Assembly (NCBI RefSeq): GCF_058153355.1
Contig: NZ_CM177019.1
Reading direction: 5' to 3' (one strand)
DNA: 64,000 nucleotides
Numbering within the stretch: position 1 is the stretch's first letter; the number at the start of each line of letters is the position of its first letter. The notes under the pieces were generated by a model. The model was given only the letters and a program-made list of their open reading frames with translations. It was not told the origin of the DNA and did not search any database. The position numbers and the translations under genes were made by a program. Below are positions 5,611 to 61,643 of the stretch, one piece after another.

Positions 5611-6927
5611 TTAAGACTTCGTAGATTTCTCAAAGCGGCGCAGTAACTGGTTCCCACGCTCAACAGCGGTATCCAGCGCCTGCTGTGGCGTCTTCTTACC
5701 AGTCCACACGCTTTCCAGCTCTTCATCCACAATCACGCGGATCTGCGGCATATTGCCCAGACGCAGCCCTTTGGTGAACGGCAACGGCGGCTTGTTCAGC
5801 ATCTGACGCGTCGCGGTATCCGCCCCTGGGTTTTTCTCGTAAAAGCCCTGCTCACGGGTCAGGTTATACGCCGCTTTGGTGATTGGCAGATAACCGGTTT
5901 TCTGATGCCACTCGGCAGCATTTTCTGGCTTCGCGAGGAAGTCGAGGAACTTCGCCACGCCGGTGTAAGTTTCTTTATCTTTGCCCTGCATCACCCACAG
6001 GCTGGCCCCGCCGATAATGGCGTTTTGTGGCGCATCTTTCGCATCGGCGTCGTACGGCATCATGCCTACACCGTAGTTGAATTTGGCATACTCGCGAATG
6101 TTGGCAAGAGAACCGGAAGAAGCGGTCGTCATCGCGCAATCACCGTTATAGAACTTCTCGGTGGATTCATCCTTACGCCCGACGTAACTGAAATCGCCCT
6201 TCTTGTTCATCTCTTCGAGCATGGCGATGTGTTTCACCTGCTCCGGCTTGTTGAACTCAAGCACCGCGTCCGTGCCGTCAAAGCCGTTGTTTTTGCTGGC
6301 AAACGGCAGACCGTTCCAGGCGCTAAAGTTTTCCAGTTGGATCCAGCCCTGCCAGCCGCTGGCGTAGCCGCACTTCATACCAGAGGCTTTCAGTTTCGCG
6401 GAATAGTCCGCCAGATCCTGCCAGGTTTTCGGCGGCTGTTCCGGGTCTAACCCCGCTTTCTTGAAGGCGTCTTTGTTGTAATAGAGAACGGGAGTCGAGC
6501 TGTTGAACGGCTGGGAGAGTAAGTGGCCGGTTTTGCTGTCGGAGTAGTAACCTGAAACCGTCGGCACAAACTGCGACTCATCGAATTGAATCCCCGCCTC
6601 TTTAAACACGTCATATACCGGTTTAATGGCTTTCGACGCCATCATGGTGGCGGTGCCAACTTCATAAACCTGCAAAATAGCCGGAGCGTTGCCGGTACGA
6701 AATGCGGCAATCCCCGCGCTTAAATTCTGTTCGTAGTTGCCTTTATAGATCGGTACAATTTTGTAATCCGGGTTTTCGGCGTTAAAACGTTGAGCCAGAG
6801 AATCCACCTCTTTACCCAGTTCCCCTTCCATAGAATGCCAGAACGGAATGGTCGTCACTGCCTGTGCATTCCCCATTAACGCCAGTCCGAGCGCCAGTGC
6901 TGAAGCTGTATAATGTAACGGTTTCAT
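5611..6927 (-). CDS. ugpB: periplasmic sn-glycerol-3-phosphate binding protein
   Basis: 438-aa ORF with signal peptide [23 protein letters not shown]; first gene of ugp operon. Confidence 0.9.
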
Positions 6928-23340: not shown

Positions 23341-23649
23341 TTAGTGCTGGGCCGGGAACGGCGGCATAGTCAGGAAAGCATAATAAAGCGCTAACATCAG
23401 AATGACGGAGATAACACAGCATCCAGCAACCAGGCGGGATGCTATGGATGGCCTTTTGAACATCAACCACAGGGCATAAGCAAGCCCGACACCGTTAAGT
23501 AAAGGTAAAAAAATCATTAGCCAGAGCCAACCCCAGGCAAGTACCCCCAGCCATCCCCCCACGACGATAAAAACAGGGATCAGCCAATTGGGGGTGAAGA
23601 TCGCGAGCAATCCCAGCAATGCCAGACAAACTGGAATTAAATAATCCAT
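23341..23649 (-). CDS. hypothetical small inner membrane protein
   Basis: 102-aa ORF with three predicted hydrophobic helices, convergent with zntA, directly beside the IS insertion; I do not recall a K-12 gene here. Confidence 0.35.
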   Translation of the reverse strand: MDYLIPVCLALLGLLAIFTPNWLIPVFIVVGGWLGVLAWGWLWLMIFLPLLNGVGLAYALWLMFKRPSIASRLVAGCCVISVILMLALYYAFLTMPPFPAQH

Positions 23650-23700: not shown

Positions 23701-24926
<1,226 letters not shown>

Positions 24927-24956
24927 CATGCCTGCAATCTGGGAAACCGGGGTAGA

Positions 24957-24988
<32 letters not shown>

Positions 24989-32577: not shown

Positions 32578-35380
<2,803 letters not shown>

Positions 35381-35388
35381 GCCCGTAA

Positions 35389-36516
35389 TTACGCCATTGT
35401 CCCAATCGTCTTCCTGAATCGCAGCAGCGCGATGGTGAAAAACACGCCGCCAATTGCCATCAACGTCAGGAACTGCGGCCAGACGATTTCGAATCCGGCA
35501 CCCCGGTAGAGGATGGCCTGCGCGAGGCTGACAAAGTGTGTCGTCGGCATGGTCAGCATAATGTCCTGCACCATCTGCGGCATACTTTCGCGCGGCGTGG
35601 AGCCACCGGAAAGCATTTGCAGCGGCAGCAGCACCAGAATCACCAGCAGCCCCAGTTGCGGCATTGAACGCGCTATCGTCCCCATAAAAATGCCGATTGA
35701 CGTGGTGGCAAACAGACTGAGCGCCACGCCCAACATAAACAACGGGATCGAGCCTTCAATCGGTACGCCCAGCACGCCTTTTACCATCAGCACCAGCGAT
35801 AATCCCGATACCACCAGCACCACCAGCCCCATCGACCAGATCTTCGCCATCATGATCTCAAACGGCGTTATCGGCATCACCAGTAAGTGTTCCACCGTGC
35901 CGTGTTCACGCTCGCGGATCAGCGCCGATCCGGTCAACACAATCGCCAGCATGGTAATGTTGTTGATGATCGCCATCACCCCGCCAAACCATGCGGGATC
36001 GAGGTTCGGGTTAAAGCGCATGCGGGTTTCCAGCGATACCAACGGTTCGCTGTTATCACGGTAGCGAGCGACAAAGCTGTTCACTTCACCGTTGATAATA
36101 TTCTGGATATAACCGTTGCCAGTGAATGCCTGGCTCATGCGCGTGGCATCGACGTTCACCTGAATATCCGGCTGACGTCCTGCGAGGACATCACGCTGAA
36201 AATTAGGCGGAATATTTATCGCGAAGGTATAGCGCCCGGCGTCCAGCCCGGCATCCATCTCATCGGCGGTGATCATCTCCGGGGGCAAAAACCACGGGCG
36301 GTAGAAGCTGTTAACGATCCGGTTCGATAACTGCGATTGATCCATATCAGCAATGGCGATCGGCGCGAGGTTCAACGATCCTGGCGTAACGGTCGCTGAC
36401 GAATACACCGACACCGTAAACGAGAAGACAATCAGCGTCAGCATCGCTTTATCACCGAGCAGACTGCGCAACTCTTTGATACCCAGATTAAAAATATTGC
36501 GTAAATGGCGCATCAT
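35389..36516 (-). CDS. yhhJ: ABC-2 type transporter permease
   Basis: Start set at [16 protein letters not shown] (36514-36516) with RBS GGAGGG and ATGATGA overlap with rbbA stop; about 375 aa. Confidence 0.85.
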
Positions 36517-39248
36517 CCCTCCTGTTTTTTCAGCAGCAGGATGCTTAAGCCCATCACCAGCGGGATGGCTATCAGCAACGGGATAAAAAGTTGCCATAAA
36601 TCCGTCAGATCCAGCGCCTTCGAGAACGTCCCGCGGGCGATAGTCAGAAAATGACTGGTCGGGTAAACCTCGCCGATCCAACGTCCTGGACCTTCCAGCG
36701 AAGCTACCGGATCGATCATCCCGGAAAACTGCGTCGCCGGAATCAACGTGATAATCGCCGTACCGAAAATGGCGGCAATCTGGCTTTTCATAAAAGTAGA
36801 GATCAGCAGCCCCATTCCGGTGGCGATGATGATATACAGCAGCGCCGCCAGGGTGAGCGTCAGGAAACTGCCTTTATGCGGTACGCCAAACACAAACACC
36901 GACAGGCCGCAGAGCAGGAAAAAGTTCAGCATCCCCAGCGCAATGTACGGCAGCTGTTTGCCAAGTAAAAATTCGCTGCGGGTGGTGGGGGTTACGTAAA
37001 GGTTGATAATCGACCCCAACTCTTTTTCCCGCACTACGCTAAGGGCGCTTAACATCGACGGAATCATCATCAGCAACAGCGGGATCACCGCCGGAACAAT
37101 CGCTGGCAGGCTTTTTACGTCCGGGTTATAGCGATAGCGTGTCTCAATATTCATCAGCCCGCTTTGGCTCGCGGGCGTGGATTGCCGACTCGCCACATCC
37201 TGTAGCCAGCTCTGGTGCATGGCCTGCACGTAACCTTTTACCGTTTCGGCACGACTGGGCATCGCACCGTCGATCCAGACACCGAGTTCCACAGGCGTAC
37301 CACGCGCGATATCGCGCCCGAAATTGGGTGGAATCTCAATCGCCACCGTGATATCGCCCGCACGCATCCGGCGATCAAGCTCGTCATAACTGGTGAGCGG
37401 CGGCTGCTCGATAAAGTAACGGGAACCGGAGAGATTGAGCGTCCACGCCTGGCTACTAACGGTCTGGTCGCGGTCGAGCACCGCAAAGCGCAGATTTTCC
37501 ACATCCATACTGATGCCATAACCCATTATCAGCATCAGGATCACCGTTCCCATCAGCGCCAGCGTCGAACGTACCGGATCGCGGCGCAGTTCCAGTGCTT
37601 CGCGACGGCTGTAGCTAAACAGACGTCGCAGGCTAAATCCCTGACGCGGCGCGTGGGTGGTATCATGTACCACAGGCGGCGCTTCGGCTTCGTTGCTCTG
37701 CCCTGCCGCTTCCTGCAAATAGGCGATAAATGCCTCTTCCAGACTGGCGGCTCCGCGTTTCTCAACCAGTTCCTGCGGTGTACCGCTGGCGAGCACTTTT
37801 CCGGCGTGCATTAGTGAGATGCGGTCGCACCGTTCCGCTTCGTTCATAAAGTGGGTGGAGATGAAAATGGTCACTTTGTCCTGGCGCGAAAGATCGACCA
37901 TTAACTGCCAGAACATATCCCTCGCCACTGGATCGACGCCAGAAGTAGGCTCATCGAGGATTAACATCTCCGGCCGATGAATCACCGCCACCGCCAGCGA
38001 AAGCCGCTGGCGAATGCCGAGCGGCAATGACTCCGGCAGAACATCTTCAACGTCGTTGAGCTTAAAACGCTCGCTCATTTCAGCCACTCGCGCGGGAATT
38101 TCCGCTTCCGGAATGTGAAACAAACGGGCATGTAACTCCAGGTTTTGCCGCACGGTGAGTTCGTTATAGAGCGAAAACGCCTGCGACATATAGCCCACCC
38201 GACGGCGAGTATCGATATCTTTTGGATCAACCGGTTGCCCGAACAGCCACGCCTCACCTTCGCTGGCGGGTAGCAGTCCGGTAAGCATTTTCATGGTGGT
38301 GGATTTACCGCAGCCGTTCGAACCAAGGAAGCCAAAAATCTCCCCGCGTGGAATGCGGAAATTGACGTGATCAACGGCAACGAAGGAACCAAAACGCATG
38401 GTCAGATCGCGCGCTTCGATGGCAATCTCTGCGTTTTCAGGTTGATACGGTGGGATCACTACCGCCTGATGCGCCTGCCGTTGTGCTTGCGGTAACAGAT
38501 TAATAAATGCTTCTTCCAGCGTGGCGCTTTGCGTTTGCTGCCGCAGCTCTTCGGCGCTGCCAGTCGCCAGTACTTCTCCGGCATTCATCGCTACCAGCCA
38601 GTCGAAGCGTTCCGCCTCTTCCATATAGGCGGTGGCAACCAGCACGCTCATATTGCTCTGCCGCTGGCGAATACTGTCGATCAGATCCCAGAACTGGGCG
38701 CGAGAGAGCGGGTCAACCCCCGTTGTTGGCTCATCAAGAATCAACAATTCCGGGTCGTGGATTAACGCACAGCACAGCCCCAGTTTTTGCTTCATCCCGC
38801 CGGAGAGTTTACCTGCCGGACGATCGCGAAACGGTGCTAACCCGGTGCTGGTCAGCAGCTCATTAATTCGGACTTCCCGCTCCGCTTTGTCGTGACCGAA
38901 CAGGCGGGCGAAAAAATCGACGTTTTCATACACCGACAAGGTGTGGTAGAGGTTTTTGCCCAGTCCCTGCGGCATCCAGGCAATGCGCGGGCAGACGTCA
39001 CGGCGATGCCTCGGGTCGCGCATATCGCCGCCCAGCACGATCACGTTGCCCTGCTCAATGACGCGGGCACCGGAAATCAGTGACAACAAACTCGACTTCC
39101 CAACGCCGTCCGGGCCAATCAGCCCGACCATGCAGCGGGCCGGAATGTCGAGAGTGATATTGTTCAGCGCAACAGTTTTTCCATAATGCTGGCTCACGCC
39201 CGCCAGTTGCGCGACAGGCGGGACGGGAACCAGTTCCAGATGCGTCAT
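36513..39248 (-). CDS. rbbA: ribosome-associated ATPase (fused tandem ABC ATPase plus permease)
   Basis: 911-aa ORF with two Walker A motifs ([18 protein letters not shown]) and C-terminal ABC-2 permease domain. Confidence 0.9.
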
Positions 39249-52226: not shown

Positions 52227-53915
52227 ATGACATGTATGAAAATTACATCTAACAATGTAACTGCGGTCATCAACGGAAAAGGTTGGCATTCCATTAACTG
52301 GAAGAAATGCCATCAACACGTTAAAACCATACAGACAAGAATCGCAAAGGCGGCATGTAACCAGCAATGGCGTACAGTCGGTAGATTGCAACGATTGCTG
52401 GTTCGCTCATTCAGCGCCAGAGCACTGGCGGTGAAACGAGTTACGGAAAATAGCGGGCGTAAAACCCCCGGAGTTGATGGTCAAATCTGGAGTACTCCAG
52501 AATCAAAATGGGAAGCGATATTCAAACTCAGGCGAAAAGGGTACAAGCCCCTACCGCTAAAAAGAGTTTTTATACCCAAATCTAATGGCAAGAAAAGACC
52601 ATTAGGAATCCCCGTCATGCTTGACAGGGCAATGCAGGCCCTGCATCTGCTGGGATTGGAGCCTGTATCGGAAACTAATGCAGATCACAACAGTTATGGT
52701 TTCAGACCAGCGCGATGTACGGCTGACGCCATTCAACAGGTATGTAATATGTATAGTTCCCGGAACGCCTCGAAATGGGTTCTGGAAGGCGATATTAAAG
52801 GATGCTTTGAACACATTAGCCACGAGTGGCTGCTTGAAAATATTCCTATGGACAAGCAAATACTCCGTAATTGGTTGAAAGCCGGGATCATCGAAAAAAG
52901 CATATTCAGCAAAACTCTCTCGGGTACACCCCAGGGAGGAATCATATCTCCAGTTCTGGCAAACATGGCCCTGGATGGACTGGAAAGACTGCTGCAAAAT
53001 CGCTTTGGTCCGAAACGCTCAAAAACATTCAGGAAACATCAGGTTCACTTCGTCCGGTATGCTGATGATTTCATCATTTCCGGAAAGTCGAAAGAACTTC
53101 TGGAGGAGAATGTTCTTCCGTTGGTGAAATCATTTCTTGCAGAAAGAGGGCTGACGTTATCCGAAGAGAAAACGGTCATCACTCACATTACTGACGGATT
53201 TGATTTCCTTGGGCAGCACGTCCGACGCTTCGGTAGAAAACTCATAATCAGACCAGCCAAGAAAAACGTTAAACAATTTCTTAGCAAGATCAGAGAGACT
53301 ATTGAAGGTAACCGAACGGTTCCTGCATGGGTGCTAATAAATCTGCTTAATCCAATCATCACCGGGTGGGCAAACTATCACCAACATGTAGCATCGGCAG
53401 AGACATTTAACTATGTCGACAACCAAATCTGGCGCAAAATCTGGCAGTGGTGCAGAAGGAGACATCCCGGCAAAGGCCGGAGATGGATCTTCCGAAAGTA
53501 CCACACGACAATAAAAATGTGTCATGGTCGATTTTATGGAGTCGATCCGGAGGGTAGGAAATATGTTCTGTCCCGGGCCAGCGACATCCATATTAATCGC
53601 TATATAAAAATAAAGGGAACGGCAAATCCATATGATCCCGAGTGGGAAACATACTTCGAAAGAAGGCTGGACTACTCATGGAAGAAATCCCAACAGGGGC
53701 AGAAAAGGATTCTCGCTATATGGAAAAGGCAAGGATCGCGCTGCCCTTTATGTGAGCAACCGATTAATCGCGATACAGGATGGAATGTTCATCATTTGCT
53801 CAAGAAATCTCTTGGCGGTAGCGATGATGTGAGCAATTTAGTCCTACTCCATCCCAACTGCCATCGACAACTACATAGTAATGACGCTGGTCTCCCACAA
53901 GGTGGAGGCTTATAA
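52227..53915 (+). CDS. group II intron-encoded protein (reverse transcriptase / maturase / HNH endonuclease)
   Basis: RT motifs including FRPARCTADA and YADDFIISG (YADD); maturase X region; C-terminal HNH (CPLCEQPI..WNVHHLLKKSLGG..HPNCHRQLH). Start uncertain: frame opens at GTG 52173, first ATG 52227, alternative 52236. Confidence 0.85.
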   Translation: MTCMKITSNNVTAVINGKGWHSINWKKCHQHVKTIQTRIAKAACNQQWRTVGRLQRLLVRSFSARALAVKRVTENSGRKTPGVDGQIWSTPESKWEAIFKLRRKGYKPLPLKRVFIPKSNGKKRPLGIPVMLDRAMQALHLLGLEPVSETNADHNSYGFRPARCTADAIQQVCNMYSSRNASKWVLEGDIKGCFEHISHEWLLENIPMDKQILRNWLKAGIIEKSIFSKTLSGTPQGGIISPVLANMALDGLERLLQNRFGPKRSKTFRKHQVHFVRYADDFIISGKSKELLEENVLPLVKSFLAERGLTLSEEKTVITHITDGFDFLGQHVRRFGRKLIIRPAKKNVKQFLSKIRETIEGNRTVPAWVLINLLNPIITGWANYHQHVASAETFNYVDNQIWRKIWQWCRRRHPGKGRRWIFRKYHTTIKMCHGRFYGVDPEGRKYVLSRASDIHINRYIKIKGTANPYDPEWETYFERRLDYSWKKSQQGQKRILAIWKRQGSRCPLCEQPINRDTGWNVHHLLKKSLGGSDDVSNLVLLHPNCHRQLHSNDAGLPQGGGL

Positions 53916-53921
53916 AGGCTT

Positions 53922-53955
53922 GAGCGGTATGCGGGGAAACTCGCACGTACCGTTC
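53922..53955 (+). ncRNA. group II intron domain V (catalytic hairpin)
   Basis: GAGCGGTATGCGGGGAAACTCGCACGTACCGTTC: 34-nt hairpin with AGC catalytic triad and conserved bulge, 7 nt after the IEP stop. Confidence 0.8.
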
Positions 53956-54209
53956 TTAGGGGGCGGCGAGACAGTAATGAATCGCTGCTACCCGACTCTG
54001 CGTACGCAATCAAAATCCCCAGCCAATACAACATTTAACACCATCATATTTTCCATCATTAGTGTGATCAGCTGGTTATTTTCTGTTGTAATAGTGTATT
54101 AATCTATTCACCGCATCAATATTAAGAATCTCTGACAGATGTAAACTTTTTCGCGCGTTATCCCTTACGCGTTCATACTTTTCAGGATGGTATTGGAAGG
54201 TTAATAAAT

Positions 54210-61399: not shown

Positions 61400-61491
61400 G
61401 CATGGAAAAGTTAGATGTGGGCATTCTCACTCCAGCCAGAGCCACCAACTCAGGCCTGGAAAGTAAAAGACCGACGTAAGTCGGTTTTTTT
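61400..61491 (+). ncRNA. agrB-like antisense sRNA with intrinsic terminator (bounds approximate)
   Basis: Unit GTTAGATGTGGGCATTCTCACTCCAGCCAGAGC at 61410-61442, then hairpin GACCGACGTAAGTCGGT plus TTTTTTT (61469-61491) on plus strand. Confidence 0.45.
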
Positions 61492-61643
61492 ACATCCGGA
61501 TTCAGACCTCCTTTCAAATGAATACCCAACTCAAAATTCACACCTATTACCTTCCTCTGCACTTACACATTCGTTAAAACATATATGTTTTTGACTTATC
61601 CGCTTCGAAGAGAGACACTACCTGCAACAATCAGGAGCGCAAT

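Follow-up and report, generated by a model that had tools for sequence, protein, structure and literature searches.

The chromosomal site considered here was described by Jackson et al. (2009, BMC Genomics 10:584, their Table 3; PMC2935791) as rhs "locus 9", situated at about 3,620,000 between nikR and yhhJ. They mapped the presence or absence of locus 9 in 20 strains and inferred that rhs sequences at this locus arose only in the lineage of K12, HS and ATCC8739. For the RhsB element they refer to papers from the Hill laboratory (cited here through Jackson et al.), and the literature searched yielded no other paper naming nikR together with yhhJ. In Escherichia coli K-12 MG1655 (NC_000913.3) the order of genes is nikR, rhsB, yhhH, yrhC' (a pseudogene), yhhI and yhhJ, where yhhI is the transposase gene of ISEc1, also called the H-repeat. 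The GC content is 61.9% in the rhs core, 38.4% in the rest of the element and 56–57% in the flanks, a mosaic of the kind known for Rhs elements. A second described system that bears on the site is the insertion sequence IS1397, which inserts specifically into REP (PU) sequences, as stated in PMC1525189 with citations of Clement et al. (1999) and Wilde et al. (2001).

I will refer to the 64,000 nt analyzed in this study, taken from NCBI RefSeq assembly GCF_058153355.1 (contig NZ_CM177019.1), as the window. It is collinear with positions 3,585,402–3,650,662 of K-12, at about 95% identity on both sides of the site, and the site coincides in chromosomal position with Rhs locus 9, bounded like it by nikR on the upstream side and by yhhJ on the downstream side. 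The difference lies in what is found between the two genes. K-12 has 6,689 bp, with rhsB and the genes that accompany it, from stop codon to stop codon, whereas the window has 8 bp and lacks any rhs core, C-terminal tip, immunity gene or H-repeat between the nikR and yhhJ stops. A tblastn search with RhsB and YhhI of K-12 found no match anywhere in the 64 kb. The K-12 flanks match the window up to position 35378 on the left and again from 35385 on the right, the yhhJ segment being 97.1% identical from 4 bp before its stop. Read along the plus strand, the junction of the window consists of a TAA stop of nikR, GCCCGTAA and the yhhJ stop as TTA, and that of K-12 consists of a TGA stop of nikR, GTCTATTATTGGG...GGGCAATTGTAT and again TTA. 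The features discussed are collected in Table 1.

Table 1. Coordinates of features at the nikR/yhhJ junction and elsewhere. Positions are those of the window except in the last row, where L001 denotes the K-12 locus.
Feature	Coordinates	Strand	Basis or remark
Hypothetical 102-aa ORF	23341-23649	-	Between zntA and tusA; no Pfam match
nikE, left-hand flank	34168-34974	+	NCBIfam NikE models; collinear with K-12
nikR, 133 aa	34979-35380	+	ORF, NCBIfam match, alignment with K-12 nikR
nikR stop, TAA	35378-35380	+	Direct sequence reading
8-bp spacer, GCCCGTAA	35381-35388	.	Direct reading; unoccupied allele of RhsB / Rhs locus 9
Perfect 10-bp palindrome, CGTAATTACG	35384-35393	.	Direct sequence reading
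yhhJ stop, TAA (TTA on + strand)	35389-35391	-	Direct sequence reading
yhhJ, 374 aa, ABC-2 type permease	35389-36513	-	ORF, ABC-2 permease profiles, alignment with K-12
rbbA, 911 aa, right-hand flank	36513-39248	-	NCBIfam RbbA equivalog NF033858, 1596.6 bits; collinear with K-12
Complete group II intron	51690-53996		Between uspA and dtpB; Rfam RF02012 (D1-D4) at 51690-51837, RF00029 at 53920-53996
IS1397 right-end remnant, about 64 bp	L001 10525-10588 = NC_000913.3 3,625,524-3,625,587		Between the end of yhhI (ISEc1) and yhhJ

A preliminary description of the window, made from its sequence alone, had noted that nikR and yhhJ converge with their stops 8 bp apart, and direct reading together with the open reading frames bears this out to the base, as a matter of structure in which chance plays no part. 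It had also stated that RhsB and associated H-repeat genes lie between the two genes in K-12; the annotation of NC_000913.3 and the published Table 3 agree on the point, and alignment of the K-12 junction does place rhsB between nikR and yhhJ. That the site is unoccupied in the window, as the description held, likewise follows from a junction of only 8 bp without rhs or H-repeat sequence. Two further claims, that the junction is ancestral and that it helps to define the boundaries of Rhs elements, fare less well and are taken up below.

NikR scores well above the cut-offs of two NCBIfam equivalogs, NF002815 (235 bits against a cut-off of 83) and TIGR02793, as NikE and RbbA do with theirs, and RefSeq gives the orthologues the names nikR and yhhJ in all E. 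coli genomes that match. The former is the last gene of nikABCDE-R, with nikE upstream of it, and reads towards the site. On the other side, rbbA shares an operon with yhhJ, being upstream of it and overlapping its start, with yhiI further on. Both nikR and yhhJ are full length relative to K-12 and intact up to their stop codons.

The spacer itself, read directly, holds no REP, terminator or island DNA. No terminator-like site was found at the junction (the single match in 1 kb falls inside nikR and is within chance expectation), nor is there any unusual fold there (fold z-score −0.01). Going by the sequence, the nik and yhhJ-rbbA transcripts presumably run into each other in the 8-bp allele. 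The palindrome listed in Table 1 joins the conserved CGTAA that ends the spacer to the yhhJ stop and two bases beyond it; the palindrome is imperfect where the yhhJ stop reads TCA (strains 536, AREA_486 and L012) and is probably incidental.

The window as a whole, housekeeping genes such as ftsYEX and rpoH included, is about 95% identical to K-12, and its best match among 5,426 complete E. coli genomes is 98.6–98.8%; it therefore comes from a divergent lineage of Escherichia, close to the boundary of the species. Several other features of the window deserve mention. The ORF between zntA and tusA is absent from K-12 and annotated in strains 2020CK-00188 and SMS-3-5. Two inverted copies of an IS110-family element (23780–24987 and 48987–50194), about 24 kb apart, bracket the segment from nik to pitA, with the empty junction inside it. 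Both copies code for a DEDD transposase of 326 aa (Pfam PF01548 and PF02371), and their arms are 97% complementary. The second copy, an insertion relative to K-12 at 48992–50267, interrupts a REP whose K-12 counterpart is whole (GTAG^GCCTGATAAGCG). Such an inverted pair could mediate inversion of the segment between its members. With a size of about 1.28 kb and a REP as target, the element may resemble IS621 (compare PMC1525189). The group II intron, whose ORF (52173–53915) encodes a 580-aa protein with reverse transcriptase, maturase and HNH domains, follows immediately after a REP-like palindrome; the equivalent position in K-12 is 3,640,648, inside the small yriA/yriB ORFs. Finally, there is a single match to the AgrB-type antisense sRNA (RF02891, 61411–61493), where K-12 has the tandem agrA/agrB beside dinQ, and the BLAST segments overlap at 61425–61507, consistent with one agr repeat unit fewer than in K-12.

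To see the junction in the context of the species, I counted its alleles with junction-specific queries against 5,425 complete E. coli genomes, the numbers being drawn from query coverage and not from a genome-by-genome reading. The RhsB-type left junction of K-12 is found in 2,126 genomes, and the left junction of an island encoding a phosphotransferase system (the PTS island), with or without the toxin-antitoxin pair hicAB, in 1,635. A junction that is contiguous or carries an insert of no more than about 1.5 kb occurs in 1,654 genomes; in 165 of these (3% of the total) it is contiguous and hence empty, which leaves by subtraction about 1,489 with hicAB only. The four classes together account for 5,415 of the 5,425 genomes, and the empty allele is the rarest of these main forms. 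All of the 60 rows inspected among the 165 empty matches were exactly of query length. Positions 35381–35388 are the unoccupied allele of a known multi-allelic site for accessory genes, Rhs locus 9, the RhsB site of K-12.

The contents of the site differ in size and kind: 8 bp when empty, 823 bp with hicAB, 5.9–6.6 kb with the PTS island (hicAB present or absent) and 6.7–9.1 kb with RhsB. Annotated examples of the hicAB-only allele and of the PTS island with hicAB are found in ISHS7 and in O157:H7 and SMS-3-5, respectively. The PTS island consists of seven genes (GntR, PTS IIA, IIB and IIC, FGGY kinase, HPr and class II aldolase) and stands alone in E. whittamii and, at 78% identity, in Citrobacter amalonaticus S646. 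An RhsB allele of 9.1 kb, with extra orphan tips and immunity genes, comes from strain 2020CK-00188 (hereafter H41), the closest complete relative of the window (98.8% identity over 24 kb). In the hicAB-only allele the first approximately 108 bp after nikR (L002 2503–2610) include an inverted repeat, internal to the stretch and about 33 bp long, and no homology to this stretch was found in the PTS+hicAB alleles or the other fetched loci. The nikR stop codon was considered as a marker of occupancy (TAA when empty, TGA when occupied) and rejected, TAA being present also in H41, which has RhsB, and in all PTS alleles; among the alleles compared, TGA is confined to K-12 and to alleles with hicAB alone.

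The empty allele is not new. That RhsB is located between nikR and yhhJ and is missing from many strains is established in textbooks and papers, and public reference genomes have contained the empty allele ever since the sequencing of E. coli 536. The empty alleles of the uropathogenic strain 536 (NC_008253.1), F11, AREA_486 and MFDS1022581 are like that of the window in having a TAA stop of nikR, an 8-bp spacer with CGTAA at its end and a convergent yhhJ. They differ from it by one to three bases in the spacer (CCCCGTAA or CTTCGTAA) and by 2.6–7.2% in the flanks, and in the 536 group, as in L012, the yhhJ stop is TGA (read TCA) in place of the TAA of the window. The same genomes bear on the thought that the junction is an artefact of assembly, a repeated rhs element having been collapsed or dropped. 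Multi-copy Rhs cores do often break draft assemblies, and the E. albertii contig that ends near nikR may serve as an instance, but 165 closed genomes, 536 and F11 among them, have the identical 8-bp junction, and in the window nikR and yhhJ are intact to their stops with no rhs sequence anywhere. I regard an artefact as scarcely credible.

How old is the allele? Nine empty alleles from different haplotype classes were read, with their flanks compared over about 450 bp on each side. All nine have exactly 8 bp ending in CGTAA, in the variants GCCCGTAA, CCCCGTAA and CTTCGTAA, and their flanks differ from one another by up to 7.8%. Since a single architecture lies within flanks this far apart, the 8-bp allele must be old and not the product of repeated independent deletions. 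In flank sequence the empty alleles are no closer to each other than to occupied alleles, a comparison in which the left-flank distances of L003 and L004 are slightly inflated by a 3-base offset of the slices.

The relation between the window and H41 might suggest something quite different, that the immediate ancestors of the window recently lost an RhsB allele like that of H41. The two sequences are close, and H41 carries its 9.1-kb allele and has in common with the window TAA-GCC to the left of the site and GTAA-TTA to its right. Plain deletion of the H41 insert, however, would give GCC+CTGTAA, which is 9 bp, and not GCCCGTAA. Moreover, relatives of the window at 97–98.7% are also empty (MFDS1022581, 24A16CRGN010, 2013C-4282 and Z0117EC0005), as are lineages 4–8% away (536 and L012) with the same 8-bp architecture, and independent deletions would not be expected to arrive repeatedly at the same 8 bp. 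A recent loss is accordingly very improbable.

If the empty allele is old, it remains to ask whether RhsB entered it, and the edges of the RhsB allele speak to this question. The left edge is simple: DNA specific to RhsB begins within 0–3 bases of the nikR stop. The right edge is composite. The last approximately 91 bp before the yhhJ stop of K-12 (positions 6600–6689 between the stops) match the right end of the E. whittamii PTS-only allele at 88% identity, and the RhsB alleles of both K-12 and H41 have this stretch in common with the PTS-island alleles of other Escherichia. Being shared with an allele that has only the PTS island, the last 91 bp are therefore resident host DNA and not part of RhsB. 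By alignment, the spacer in PTS alleles opens with an intact canonical REP, GCCGGATGCGGCG-TAAA-CGCCTTATCCGGCC, and in K-12 and H41 only half of this REP is left, TAAA-CGCCTTATCCGGCC, following ...ACTGTCCAGGTTTTGGGGGTCAGTTCA.

What precedes the half REP can be identified as well. Independent copies of ISEc1 match K-12 only up to about L001 10526, and the roughly 64 bp that follow correspond to the right end of IS1397, as seen in a complete copy from strain CU42ET-1 that occupies a REP loop between alr and tyrB. One might have taken the whole stretch after yhhI to be the end of the H-repeat; this was rejected, as the ISEc1 copies stop where they do and the remainder is the IS1397 end. In K-12, then, a REP that has lost one half holds the remnant of IS1397 in its loop, fused to the end of ISEc1, and there is no intact IS1397 at the locus. 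The feature known from REP-targeted IS1397, its right end within a REP loop, is the same at the right boundary of RhsB in K-12; it differs in that K-12 keeps only about 64 bp of the element, and it belongs to the occupied allele, being absent from the window. Judged by these alignments, the IS1397 remnant is the true right boundary of the RhsB element in K-12. The same composite end (ISEc1, IS1397 remnant, half REP) is present in 1,826 genomes and in H41, which points to one founding event.

Because the right edge of RhsB is an IS1397 end within a REP loop of the host spacer, RhsB must have entered an allele that bore REPs. The 91-bp REP spacer that abuts RhsB DNA is absent from the 8-bp allele. 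Nor is the occupied allele simply the empty allele plus one insertion: the right edge is composite, and the spacer bases fail to reassemble exactly. As far as sequence can tell, the 8-bp allele cannot be the direct progenitor of the RhsB allele.

The sequence implies an order of events. A REP-bearing host spacer of about 105 bp, of the kind that is intact today in PTS-island alleles, came first; it received IS1397 in the loop of its REP, and the join between ISEc1 and RhsB then formed, truncating IS1397. Among the rows inspected no E. coli allele had REPs without an island, and so I infer the pre-insertion state. The alleles would most likely pass between chromosomes as entire cassettes, through homologous recombination within the conserved flanks, nik on one side and yhhJ-rbbA on the other. 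The 3' end of nikR shows a locally elevated, mosaic divergence that fits recombination in the flanks. Site-specific integration of the att type was also considered, and rejected for want of a tRNA, an integrase or flanking direct repeats. There are no tRNA or tmRNA genes in the 64-kb window, the annotations of the RhsB, PTS and hicAB alleles examined include no integrase, and no in-register direct repeat or target duplication was found at the edges of any type of island. In K-12 and the hicAB-only allele no 6-mer or longer is shared within 30 bp of both edges, and in H41 and E. whittamii the few 6–7-mers at the edges stand at unequal offsets.

To place the empty allele in a wider frame, species-representative genomes were scanned by means of NikR, and YhhJ and RbbA were then sought by tblastn. 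Convergent nikR and yhhJ without an island were found at 13 Citrobacter loci and in Salmonella enterica subsp. diarizonae, and the species-representative scan found no such adjacency in Klebsiella, Enterobacter, Kosakonia or other genera. S. arizonae has an 80-bp spacer beside a truncated remnant of yhhJ. The junctions of Citrobacter and S. diarizonae are like the window in the island-free convergence of the two genes; they differ in that their spacers are 15–103 bp long and consist mostly of REP palindromes, where the window has 8 bp and no REP. Two Citrobacter strains, Cu233 and On2M, have REP-less spacers of 15 and 17 bp, respectively. The flanks of the window and of C. amalonaticus ku-bf3 are about 82% identical.

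Within Escherichia but outside E. coli the picture is another one, with the PTS island at the site in four of the five representatives. Its left junction follows directly after nikR in E. albertii, E. whittamii, Escherichia sp. E1V33 and Escherichia sp. MOD1-EC7003, and among the divergent Escherichia compared only L012 (labelled E. coli SCPM-O-B-8794) is empty, having the 8-bp junction CTTCGTAA within flanks about 7–8% from those of other Escherichia. Two of these loci have peculiarities of their own. The contig of E. albertii NBRC 107761 ends 447 bp after nikR, and the gene for a GntR-family regulator (L006 10403–10846) is interrupted where the contig stops by what is presumably the end of an IS1. 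In Escherichia sp. MOD1-EC7003 (L011 16200–20399) additional genes, among them ORFs of 383 and 400 aa, take up at least 4 kb between the PTS island and yhhJ, and nikR and yhhJ are more than 10 kb apart, a further state of the site.

The PTS island of O157 is 94.7% identical to that of E. whittamii, with flank differences of 4.6–6%, and 78% identical to that of C. amalonaticus S646, to be set beside the 82% or so of the Citrobacter flanks. Its divergence thus parallels that of the flanks, which implies an island at least as old as the genus. RhsB, 93–95% identical between K-12 and H41, likewise looks old.

It is now possible to weigh the claim of the preliminary description that the 8-bp junction is the ancestral one, a pristine state into which RhsB and other islands were later inserted. 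There is something to be said for it. Junctions without islands are found in Citrobacter and Salmonella, the smallest of their spacers only 15 and 17 bp long; the 8-bp allele is old and present in the very divergent L012; and Jackson et al. inferred that rhs was a derived acquisition here (PMC2935791). The adjacency of nikR and yhhJ free of any island is thus upheld by the outgroups. On the other hand, the RhsB alleles keep the 91-bp REP spacer and the footprint of IS1397 in a REP, which call for a progenitor that bore REPs, and the PTS island, by implication at least as old as the genus, occupies most of the non-coli representatives. The term ancestral, then, is no more than loosely right, and as stated the claim is unsupported, because RhsB entered a REP-bearing allele whose host sequence the 8-bp allele lacks, because four of the five non-coli Escherichia representatives carry the PTS island, and because the site has at least four alternative alleles of which the empty one is the rarest. 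In its strict form, according to which K-12 minus the window yields the exact Rhs element, the claim is refuted by the comparison of the 91-bp spacer, and in the looser form I consider it unlikely.

I lean instead, with modest conviction, towards a single ancient deletion, which would have removed the spacer and perhaps the PTS island too, leaving four bases from each edge. Such a deletion is favored because the REP spacers adjoining yhhJ can be aligned between Citrobacter and Escherichia and because most Escherichia species carry the PTS island. The polarity of the change is nonetheless not provable from 8 bp of sequence. A short spacer without REPs could be primordial, with REPs and islands added later, since the empty L012 and the two Citrobacter spacers of 15 and 17 bp are all without REPs, and the position of the REPs common to Citrobacter and Escherichia could in principle be convergent, REPs being mobile. 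It is also possible, though I would put it forward only tentatively, that the junction is a long-lived trans-lineage polymorphism, in which four contents, kept for a time on the scale of species divergence, are shuffled by recombination in the flanks and the empty one stems from one ancient deletion; what suggests it is that the divergence of cargo or flanks roughly equals the divergence of the lineages that carry them.

Taken together, a site with multiple alleles, an RhsB that was not inserted into the 8-bp allele, exchange of whole cassettes and an ancient deletion make up what I believe to be the probable explanation of the junction. With regard to Rhs elements, about 39% of complete genomes, among them a lineage some 5% divergent from K-12, carry the RhsB allele, which is far more widespread than was inferred in 2009, from 20 genomes, when it was confined to the lineage of K12, HS and ATCC8739. 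The hope that the 8-bp junction would serve to define the boundaries of Rhs elements fails at the right edge, where subtraction of this allele from K-12 overstates RhsB by about 91 bp of resident REP spacer. It is the footprint of IS1397 within a REP that provides, in its place, an order of events by which the right boundary of RhsB in K-12 was formed.
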